A stretch of 52,616 nucleotides of DNA from a phage, in sequence record PZ379594.1, one strand, 5' to 3'. Each line of letters begins with the position of its first letter. The first letter of the stretch is position 1. Positions 12,233 to 12,602 of this stretch are shown here, piece by piece. The translations under genes and the position numbers were made by a program. The notes beneath the pieces are model-generated. The model did not search any database and was not told where the DNA came from. It saw only the letters and a list, made by a program, of their open reading frames with translations.

Positions 12233-12469
12233 ATGCAACAGCTTAAATCAATAATTCTTGGCGTCCTGACTGCATTTGGCATTATCATTGCAGTGTTCCT
12301 CAAAGGCAAAAGCTCAGGCAAAGCCGAGGAGCGTCAGGAAGCCACAGAGAAGCAACTAGATTCATTAAAAGAATCTATCGAGATTAAGTCGCATGTTCAG
12401 AAAGAAGTGTCTAGCAGTTCTGATAGCAATGTCGATAGTGAGTTGCTCTCAAAGTGGGTTCGTAAGTGA
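12233..12469 (+). CDS. putative i-spanin-like protein (N-terminal TM anchor, charged periplasmic region)
   Basis: N-terminal TM segment IILGVLTAFGIIIAVFL; overlaps the next ORF, which has a lipoprotein signal, as in Rz/Rz1 pairs. Confidence 0.4.
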   Translation: MQQLKSIILGVLTAFGIIIAVFLKGKSSGKAEERQEATEKQLDSLKESIEIKSHVQKEVSSSSDSNVDSELLSKWVRK

Positions 12470-12602
12470 TTATTGCTTAATTGCACAACCAATCTATTTG
12501 GATGTTGCAGAAGTGAAAATCTTATCACGCGAAACCAAAACCCAGATTTTAGTCCACAATGAAACGTGGGCACAAAAGTGTTCGAAACTTACCCGACAGT
12601 GA
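12393..12602 (+). CDS. putative o-spanin-like lipoprotein overlapping the previous gene out of frame
   Basis: Signal peptide plus lipobox (MFRKKCLAVLIAMSIVSC); start lies inside the preceding ORF. Confidence 0.4.
   Translation: MFRKKCLAVLIAMSIVSCSQSGFVSDYCLIAQPIYLDVAEVKILSRETKTQILVHNETWAQKCSKLTRQ

Follow-up and report, generated by a model that had tools for sequence, protein, structure and literature searches.

Two overlapping open reading frames at positions 12233-12602 very probably (we put the probability at roughly 0.87) encode a two-component spanin of the overlapped architecture, which would likely break the host outer membrane at lysis. This reading is supported by the topology signals of the two proteins, by their +1 overlap, by periplasmic cysteines and by homologous pairs that follow the endolysin gene elsewhere; the function of the pair is predicted from homology, architecture and the lambda model. 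The window, as the whole 52.6 kb stretch of analysed DNA is called here, is by its sequence the genome of a Carltongylesvirus (Chaseviridae, Cleopatravirinae), a phiEcoM-GJ1-like coliphage. The genomes of Carltongylesvirus relatives measure 51.5-55.6 kb, and in a blastn search the region 11400-13000 is 92-97% identical to the Escherichia phages Mangalitsa, phiEcoM-GJ1, flopper, ST32 and others.

Both the pair and its position have already been catalogued for this phage family, and the finding is correct and ordinary. SpaninDB (Kongari et al. 2018) lists the phiEcoM-GJ1 pair as 'ovl' with a 77-nt overlap in +1, consisting of an i-spanin (gp31, 14724-14961, 78 aa, with one coiled coil at residues 26-58) that forms a singleton family and an o-spanin (an unannotated ORF, 14884-15094, 69 aa) that shares a family of two with Pectobacterium phage PM1 (PMC6139136). 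The pair in the window is orthologous to it, with 97-99% identity and the same lengths, overlap and frame, and relative to that entry the window adds nothing new. The present analysis contributes the dual-coding constraint in the overlap, the homology of the 'singleton' i-spanin and the small o-spanin family to the mEp390/HK639 lambdoid phages and a large prophage family, the invariant cysteine pattern, and a confident helical model of the o-spanin domain.

Signals, structure and overlap of the two genes

The features of the pair and of the genes discussed with it are collected in Table 1. In the Mangalitsa record a ribosome-binding site is annotated at the position equivalent to 12223-12228.

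Table 1 Features of the spanin gene pair, the adjoining gene and the lysis genes in the window
Feature	Position	Strand	Basis
Imm-type neighbour protein	11464-11715		Pfam Imm_superinfect, E 9e-18
Shine-Dalgarno AAGGTG of the i-spanin gene	12223..12228	+	read from sequence
Predicted i-spanin gene, 78 aa, ATG start	12233..12469	+	ORF; phrog_1026; BLASTP; AF2; SpaninDB orthologue
Predicted i-spanin transmembrane segment, residues 6-23, SIILGVLTAFGIIIAVFL	12248..12301	+	sole uncharged stretch of at least 15 residues
Dual-coding overlap, 77 nt	12393..12469	+	i-spanin C-terminus in frame 0; o-spanin signal peptide in frame +1
Predicted o-spanin gene, 69-aa precursor, ATG start	12393..12602	+	ORF; phrog_1275; homologues; AF2
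Predicted lipoprotein signal peptide	12393..12446	+	lipobox IVSC, codons 12435-12446; PROSITE-like rule
Holin gene	47664..48005	+	Pfam Phage_holin_3_1, E 2e-8; PHROG 126 holin/anti-holin, E 2e-18
Endolysin gene, SleB/Hydrolase_2 type	48023..48577	+	Pfam Hydrolase_2, E 9e-16; PHROG 938 endolysin

The 78-aa protein is, by its signals, a predicted type II inner-membrane protein, with a single N-terminal transmembrane segment and a C-terminal periplasmic domain, the topology by which Kongari et al. (2018) recognise an i-spanin. The hydrophobic residues 6-23 have a Kyte-Doolittle mean of 2.4 over 19 residues, and most of the amino-acid variation of the protein within the genus falls into this segment, with hydrophobicity being kept. 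The periplasmic part of 55 residues is highly charged, lacks both Cys and Pro, and carries a conserved VDxEL..W.R motif at the C-terminal end. A single-sequence AlphaFold2 model shows helices at residues 2-29, 33-59 and 66-77, with a mean pLDDT of 71.5.

The 69-aa protein begins with a putative lipoprotein signal composed of the basic n-region MFRKK, the hydrophobic h-region CLAVLIAMSIV and the lipobox I-V-S-C18. Lipidation is predicted at Cys18, giving a mature lipoprotein of 52 aa, and this residue is followed at +2 by a Ser, for which the rule predicts sorting to the outer membrane. The lipoprotein and transmembrane calls are rule-based, made with a PROSITE PS51257-like rule and hydropathy, and by that rule the protein has the outer-membrane lipoprotein signal without Asp at +2 that Kongari et al. 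(2018) describe for o-spanins. The rule was applied in all six frames to 1656 start-to-stop candidates of 40 aa or more; five loci pass it, and four of these lie wholly inside longer ORFs on either strand, leaving 12393-12602 as the sole exception. No hydrophobic stretch of the kind expected in a unimolecular spanin (T1 gp11 type) follows the signal peptide in the 69-aa lipoprotein.

Conservation among the homologues of the o-spanin is concentrated in a few residues. The lipid-attachment Cys is invariant in 46 homologues, and the [GAS]-C end of the lipobox is kept in all those aligned. The periplasmic Cys28 and Cys63 are likewise invariant, as are T48, K49 and N56, and H55 is nearly so. A proposed general requirement of two-component spanins is a cysteine in the periplasm, one or more, that can form homotypic disulfides (Kongari et al. 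2018; PMC6139136); in this pair the o-spanin by itself supplies two. Since the i-spanin has no cysteine and the o-spanin two invariant ones, any stabilising disulfides would have to be within or between o-spanin chains. An AlphaFold2 model of the o-spanin based on the 46-sequence alignment is confident for residues 31-67, with pLDDT values of 88-93 over residues 31-60, and contains a short helix at 38-43 and a long helix at 46-67. A match in BFVD is named 'O-spanin [Escherichia phage Mangalitsa]' and has 97% identity; when the o-spanin model was compared with BFVD by Foldseek, only family members and no informative distant fold were returned, and by sequence the o-spanin has no match in the PDB at E≤10.

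The two genes are adjacent and overlapped, with the o-spanin in the +1 frame, which is the arrangement that Kongari et al. (2018) set out. When the 370 nt of the pair are aligned across 13 genomes of the genus, a single column of 77 is variable in the overlap, as against 66 of 294 in the flanks (Fisher p 1.2e-6), which divide into 39 of 160 variable columns in the non-overlapping part of the first gene and 27 of 134 in that of the second. Variation is thus lost exactly in the shared DNA, which argues that both frames are constrained, as dual coding predicts, and the pair is under strong purifying selection in both. In the non-overlapping part of the o-spanin gene, 14 of 26 variable sites fall at third codon positions. 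Frameshifted copies are absent among the 13 aligned genomes, in which the variants comprise a 12-nt in-frame deletion in Pel53 and small changes at the 3' end. The earlier note on this DNA had described a 78-aa protein with an N-terminal transmembrane anchor, a 69-aa ORF overlapping it out of frame and a lipoprotein signal with the lipobox IVSC, and all three descriptions hold: the anchor is borne out by the hydrophobic segment and the modelled helix 2-29, the overlap by its dual-coding constraint, and the signal by the PROSITE-like rule at Cys18.

Homologous pairs and their gene neighbourhoods

Pfam and NCBIfam scans of both proteins gave sub-threshold noise only and no model, and the family matches obtained are to PHROGs named 'Rz-like spanin', phrog_1026 for the 78-aa protein (E 2e-20) and phrog_1275 for the 69-aa protein (E 1e-17). 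PHROG family names derive from annotations, and since the spanin names may therefore be circular, gene neighbourhoods were examined as independent evidence. In tblastn searches relatives of the lipoprotein with 30-50% identity are found in unrelated phages, and in most of the homologous loci inspected the lipoprotein gene directly follows the endolysin gene and overlaps a short upstream gene. The gene order is holin, holin, endolysin, gp51, gp52 in mEp390 and endolysin, gp21, gp22 in Pseudomonas phage AF, and in SaltyDalty, Pantoea phage PdC23 and Halfdan the homologues of the spanin pair are located directly after the endolysin gene. The pair comes after a lysozyme-like gene in Rhizobium phage RHph_X2_26 and after a CwlK peptidase gene in Pseudomonas phage LPPA15, and Yersinia phage vB_YpM_41 displays the mEp390-like gene order with hypothetical-protein annotation only. 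The neighbourhood in Shewanella phage 1/4 is uninformative, the sole such case among the loci inspected.

The family extends far into bacterial genomes. A profile search with eight aligned o-spanins retrieved 1059 clusters at E≤1e-3, none with a Pfam domain and most of them unnamed genes of Enterobacter, Klebsiella, Citrobacter and E. coli genomes; the alignment was needed as a query, as a word-indexed search with a single o-spanin sequence returned only two proteins. A scan of IMG/VR yielded seven loci only, five of them from the known genus. Two clusters, the two that were inspected, were traced to Enterobacter lambdoid prophages with the order Q antiterminator, Phage_holin_8, Phage_holin_3_7, GH108 endolysin, a 91-92-aa transmembrane protein and the lipoprotein, the last two thus occupying the Rz/Rz1 slot.

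The short upstream partners are likewise homologues of the 78-aa protein, which matches mEp390 gp51 in BLASTP with E 6e-8 and 30% identity and other lysis-cassette partners with E-values from 1e-8 to 9e-5. They have in common an N-terminal transmembrane segment, a G(K/R)SSGK-type junction, a charged helix and the C-terminal VDxEL..W.R, and the i-spanins of this family contain no cysteine. The Rhizobium partner has the same architecture and no BLASTP match to it was reached. Since the upstream partners are homologous to the 78-aa protein, the two-gene module is a widespread cognate pair whose usual home is the lysis cassette. The resemblance to Rz/Rz1 architecture proposed in the earlier note is accordingly supported by topology, by the PHROG spanin matches and by the lysis-cassette synteny of the homologues.

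Position in the genome and alternative explanations

In the window the pair is not located beside the holin and endolysin genes, which is the usual although not obligatory place; these are some 35 kb further downstream, flanked by a tail-fibre assembly gene and the gene of the ribonucleotide reductase small subunit, and the endolysin has a signal- or SAR-like segment at its N-terminus. The pair itself is found among DNA-metabolism genes, upstream of thyX and primase/helicase. Placement upstream of thyX and/or primase-helicase is common to Carltongylesvirus, Myducvirus, Suwonvirus and Loessnervirus. In Myducvirus the Center for Phage Technology annotated a 'putative i-spanin', and the Myduc genome announcement does not discuss the lysis genes. 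The endolysin gene is likewise some 36-38 kb from the pair in the Yersinia phages PYps23T and PYps16N and in Pantoea phage SSEM1, and the recurrence of the separation in these three other phages indicates a stable trait of the family. The displacement that had been attributed to an accessory island is therefore real as a distance, but it is a conserved trait in at least two Chaseviridae genera and a conserved Chaseviridae position, not an island oddity.

A search of the window for another spanin returned none near the endolysin gene or elsewhere outside longer ORFs. A 61-aa ORF at 48007-48192, near the endolysin, was considered and rejected as it has neither a signal nor a family match, and the lipobox scan of the near-genome-length window detected no further lipoprotein or u-spanin candidate outside a longer ORF.

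As for transcription, no terminator-like site separating the pair from its neighbours was found on the + strand, and sigma-70 and terminator scans of the window gave background levels. The promoter core annotated in phiEcoM-GJ1 (ATTAGTTGGA) has 15 matches in the window, compared with 4.4 expected, and upstream of the pair it is nearest in exact form at 9849 and recurs with one mismatch at 10181 and 11954. According to the ICTV, promoters have not been identified in Chaseviridae, and therefore no inference on timing is drawn from these matches; a literature search on Chaseviridae transcriptomics revealed nothing relevant.

An entirely different role for the pair would be that of an early envelope-modifying or superinfection-exclusion module, in which the lipoprotein acts like the receptor-blocking Llp of T5 or Cor and cooperates with the Imm protein. 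The pair does adjoin the Imm_superinfect protein at 11464-11715, which the earlier note had rightly pointed out as an immunity-like membrane protein, and the region differs between relatives in the presence or absence of HNH endonuclease genes; the pair is also surrounded by early and DNA-metabolism genes and distant from the lysis genes. A small lipoprotein with a cysteine pair loosely recalls Llp. However, in unrelated phages and prophages both components directly follow the endolysin gene with no Imm gene nearby, and Myduc, PP101 and SSEM1 possess the pair with no Imm annotated beside it. The significant family matches of the pair are to spanin PHROGs only; Imm_superinfect matches the neighbour and neither member of the pair, and PADLOC models gave no match to either protein at E≤1. 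An exclusion function would, in addition, leave the genome without any spanin candidate. The explanation was rejected on synteny grounds and is regarded as highly improbable.

Two further explanations accept less of the pair. That the 78-aa ORF alone is real and the 69-aa ORF is a chance reading of the alternative frame is barely credible: the second ORF, or the pair as a whole, lacks annotation in several GenBank records, and the Shine-Dalgarno sequence of the o-spanin gene is weak, but the 69-aa protein is better conserved within the genus than the 78-aa protein (95-100% versus 82-100% identity), has 1059 homologous clusters with Cys, K, H and N residues that are invariant, shows its variation outside the overlap chiefly at third codon positions and has a confident AlphaFold2 fold. 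Missing annotation is also common for such genes, as gene callers overlooked 196 of the 528 o-spanins surveyed (PMC6139136). The pair might otherwise be a spanin by descent that has become dispensable or vestigial, the outer membrane being disrupted by another route such as a disruptin-like peptide or mechanical shear. The separation from the lysis genes and the short periplasmic domains would agree with this, as would the 91 of 677 surveyed phages of Gram-negative hosts (~13%) with no recognisable spanin (PMC6139136). Such decay is nevertheless most unlikely given the strong purifying selection on both frames, the maintenance of the pair at the same position in four Chaseviridae genera, and the lack of any frameshifted copy in the 13 genomes.

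Proposed mechanism and relation to known spanins

As a two-component spanin, the pair would act according to the model of lambda Rz/Rz1 (PMC6139136), in which the periplasmic domains of the i- and o-spanin would bind each other and bridge the envelope through the peptidoglycan mesh, the mesh holding the bridge in an inactive state. When infection draws to its close, the holin (47664-48005) would trigger and the endolysin (48023-48577) would destroy the wall, after which the freed spanin complexes could cluster or oligomerise and fuse the inner and outer membranes, thereby removing the last barrier to virion release. Because intact peptidoglycan would restrain the complex, the spanin genes need not be co-transcribed with those of the holin and endolysin, which is compatible with their position among DNA-metabolism genes and with the case of T4, where pseT.3/pseT.2 are also away from the holin (t) and endolysin (e) genes (PMC6139136).

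The combined periplasmic length of 55 + 52 = 107 residues is within the range of 62-300 residues reported in the survey (PMC6139136). If fully helical it would span about 16 nm, which is less than the commonly quoted width of the periplasm and was counted against the spanin reading. It is conceivable, if rather unlikely, that this compact family bridges or fuses the envelope by a mechanism unlike the lambda coiled-coil model, with a cysteine-free i-spanin and a folded helical o-spanin, and that in Chaseviridae the fixed place of the pair beside Imm, with early and DNA-metabolism genes around it, reflects early expression and a second role ahead of lysis, such as envelope tethering or exclusion. 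A literature search revealed no experimental test of the pair or of any member of its sequence family, and essentially all experimental spanin work at the time of the survey concerned lambda Rz/Rz1 (PMC6139136).

The closest counterparts outside Chaseviridae are the pairs of mEp390 (gp51/gp52), HK639 and the Enterobacter prophages, to which both components are homologous, with 35% identity for the o-spanin. These pairs likewise have the overlapped architecture and a cysteine-free i-spanin, and share with the window the motifs GxSSGK and VDxEL..W.R in one protein and C..PI...TK..IL.HN..W...C in the other. They are, however, part of a cassette of Q, holin, holin, endolysin and spanins, from which the pair in the window differs by its distant location. 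In the 2018 clustering, with its threshold of 40% identity, the window's family had stayed separate from the mEp390/HK639 and prophage families.

The overall plan is that of lambda Rz/Rz1: an inner-membrane protein of type II is paired with a lipoprotein of the outer membrane, and the two genes share DNA, that of the o-spanin being in +1. The membrane-fusion mechanism is presumed to be the same, although Rz1 is fully embedded in Rz whereas the genes in the window only overlap. Lambda Rz is also longer, with two coiled-coil domains and cysteines of its own, in contrast to the 55 periplasmic residues and absence of cysteine in the i-spanin described here. The periplasmic domain of Rz1 is unstructured (PMC6139136), while the o-spanin in the window has a confidently modelled helical domain and a single proline. 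No significant match to lambda-type families was obtained in the Pfam, PHROG and NCBIfam scans.

Among other systems, T4 PseT.3/PseT.2 is similarly a two-component spanin with genes not beside those of the holin and endolysin, and in its o-spanin helices are predicted and two cysteines are required for function (PMC6139136). The T4 proteins differ in being larger (117 and 83 aa) and in having the 'separated' architecture, and T4 and phiEcoM-GJ1 belong to different SpaninDB families and are set apart by that classification (PMC6139136). In P2 LysB/LysC the overlapped architecture with the o-spanin in +1 has been tested by experiment (PMC6139136), but the pair is of another sequence family and is placed in the P2 lysis cassette.

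The recognised pair completes the lysis gene set of a candidate therapeutic phage group, and its value lies mainly in correct annotation. The family comprises 1059 or more clusters, largely of unnamed prophage genes from enterobacteria, and lacks a Pfam model; examining the function and structure of one member would close a genuine if modest gap in the knowledge of spanins. The genes of relatives bear the name 'Rz-like spanin' in RefSeq, and for Mangalitsa UniProt and BFVD use 'O-spanin'. In GenBank, many records of relatives still leave one gene of the pair, or both, as 'hypothetical', and in some the i-spanin is entered as 'endolysin' or 'L-alanyl-D-glutamate peptidase'.

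The neighborhood of the spanin genes

The DNA around the spanin pair holds several small features in addition to the i-spanin and o-spanin genes themselves. Immediately ahead of the i-spanin gene lies a short acidic ORF with a C-terminal motif, D-C-x(2-4)-C-[KA]-I-stop, that recurs in the positionally equivalent ORFs of Myduc (...EGDCDGCKI) and SSEM1 (...DESDCDGCKI); it is absent from PP101. The 46-aa product has no signal peptide and gave no matches in Pfam, PHROG, NCBIfam or PADLOC.

Further 5′, a tRNA-like element retains an intact acceptor stem and T-arm and carries approximately 20 additional nucleotides between the acceptor stem and the D-arm. 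ARAGORN predicts no tRNAs in the entire window, and the Rfam tRNA match, confined to 11990-12045, scores 27.9 bits and so falls short of the gathering score (29). At the equivalent site in GJ1 (phiEcoM-GJ1), ST32 and SKA49, ARAGORN reports a tRNA-Leu(CAG) of 95-97 nt, and the GJ1 copy is labelled in GenBank as a tRNA-Arg that "may contain an intron". Two alleles of the extra segment exist, and its 3′ half has no match in the aligned stretch of Mangalitsa.

On the other side of the spanin genes, the 830 bp that follow the o-spanin gene (12603-13434) have no ORF of at least 60 aa on the plus strand and are despite this 85-99% identical within the genus; in the Suwonvirus PP101, two patches match at 73-78% identity. 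An indel hotspot is located at about 12932-12945, and the GC content of the stretch is slightly above that of the flanking DNA. Rfam returned no matches here and a repeat search found short two-copy repeats only; the fold z-score is -2.26, as estimated from only 20 shuffles. The stretch may be home to a regulatory or RNA element.

In the Shigella phage 2KOFFS, an HNH endonuclease gene is located directly 3′ of the o-spanin gene. A 152-aa ORF of the window resembles this endonuclease (44% identity, tblastn E-value 8e-22), and related HNH genes are thus present at differing sites around the spanin locus among the relatives.

Features of the window discussed in this part
Feature	Position	Strand	Remarks
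152-aa ORF	10728-11186	+	similar to the 2KOFFS HNH endonuclease
tRNA-like element	11962-12057	+	just 5′ of the spanin cluster
46-aa acidic ORF	12084-12224	+	good RBS; immediately 5′ of i-spanin; MDIDALDNLDFGAAEEAIEELKKKQDEEAIVPGAGDNDCSSGACAI
101-aa ORF	15860-16165	+	passes the lipobox rule: LMAC, Cys25
Endolysin	48023-48577	+	Hydrolase_2/SleB-like
ATTAGTTGGA sites (5 of 15)	4290, 8198, 9849, 18367, 52537		at most 1 mismatch

Lysis proteins and their annotation

The i-spanin orthologue is wrongly labelled "endolysin" or "L-alanyl-D-glutamate peptidase" in several GenBank records, including those of PYps23T (ORF033), PO103-1 and Pel53 (ShPel53_51). The last of these is a Chaseviridae genome deposited under "Staphylococcus phage", and its spanin genes share 82-97% identity with those of the coliphages. 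As for the endolysin of the window, a hydrophobic signal- or SAR-like segment at its N-terminus suggests Sec export or signal-anchor-release as opposed to a purely holin-dependent release.

Another ORF, of 101 aa, also passed the lipobox rule. Out of frame with the primase/helicase gene, it overlies the 3′ end of that gene and extends 25 nt beyond the stop codon of the latter; it is probably a chance match, since its composition is rich in Arg and Thr and resembles alternative-frame noise.

A promoter-like decamer

According to the ICTV, promoters have not been identified in the Chaseviridae. In phiEcoM-GJ1, however annotated "putative phage promoters" share the decamer ATTAGTTGGA as their core. 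The window has 15 sites that match this core with no more than one mismatch (14 on the plus strand), where 4.4 were expected and no shuffle out of 100 gave more than 13.
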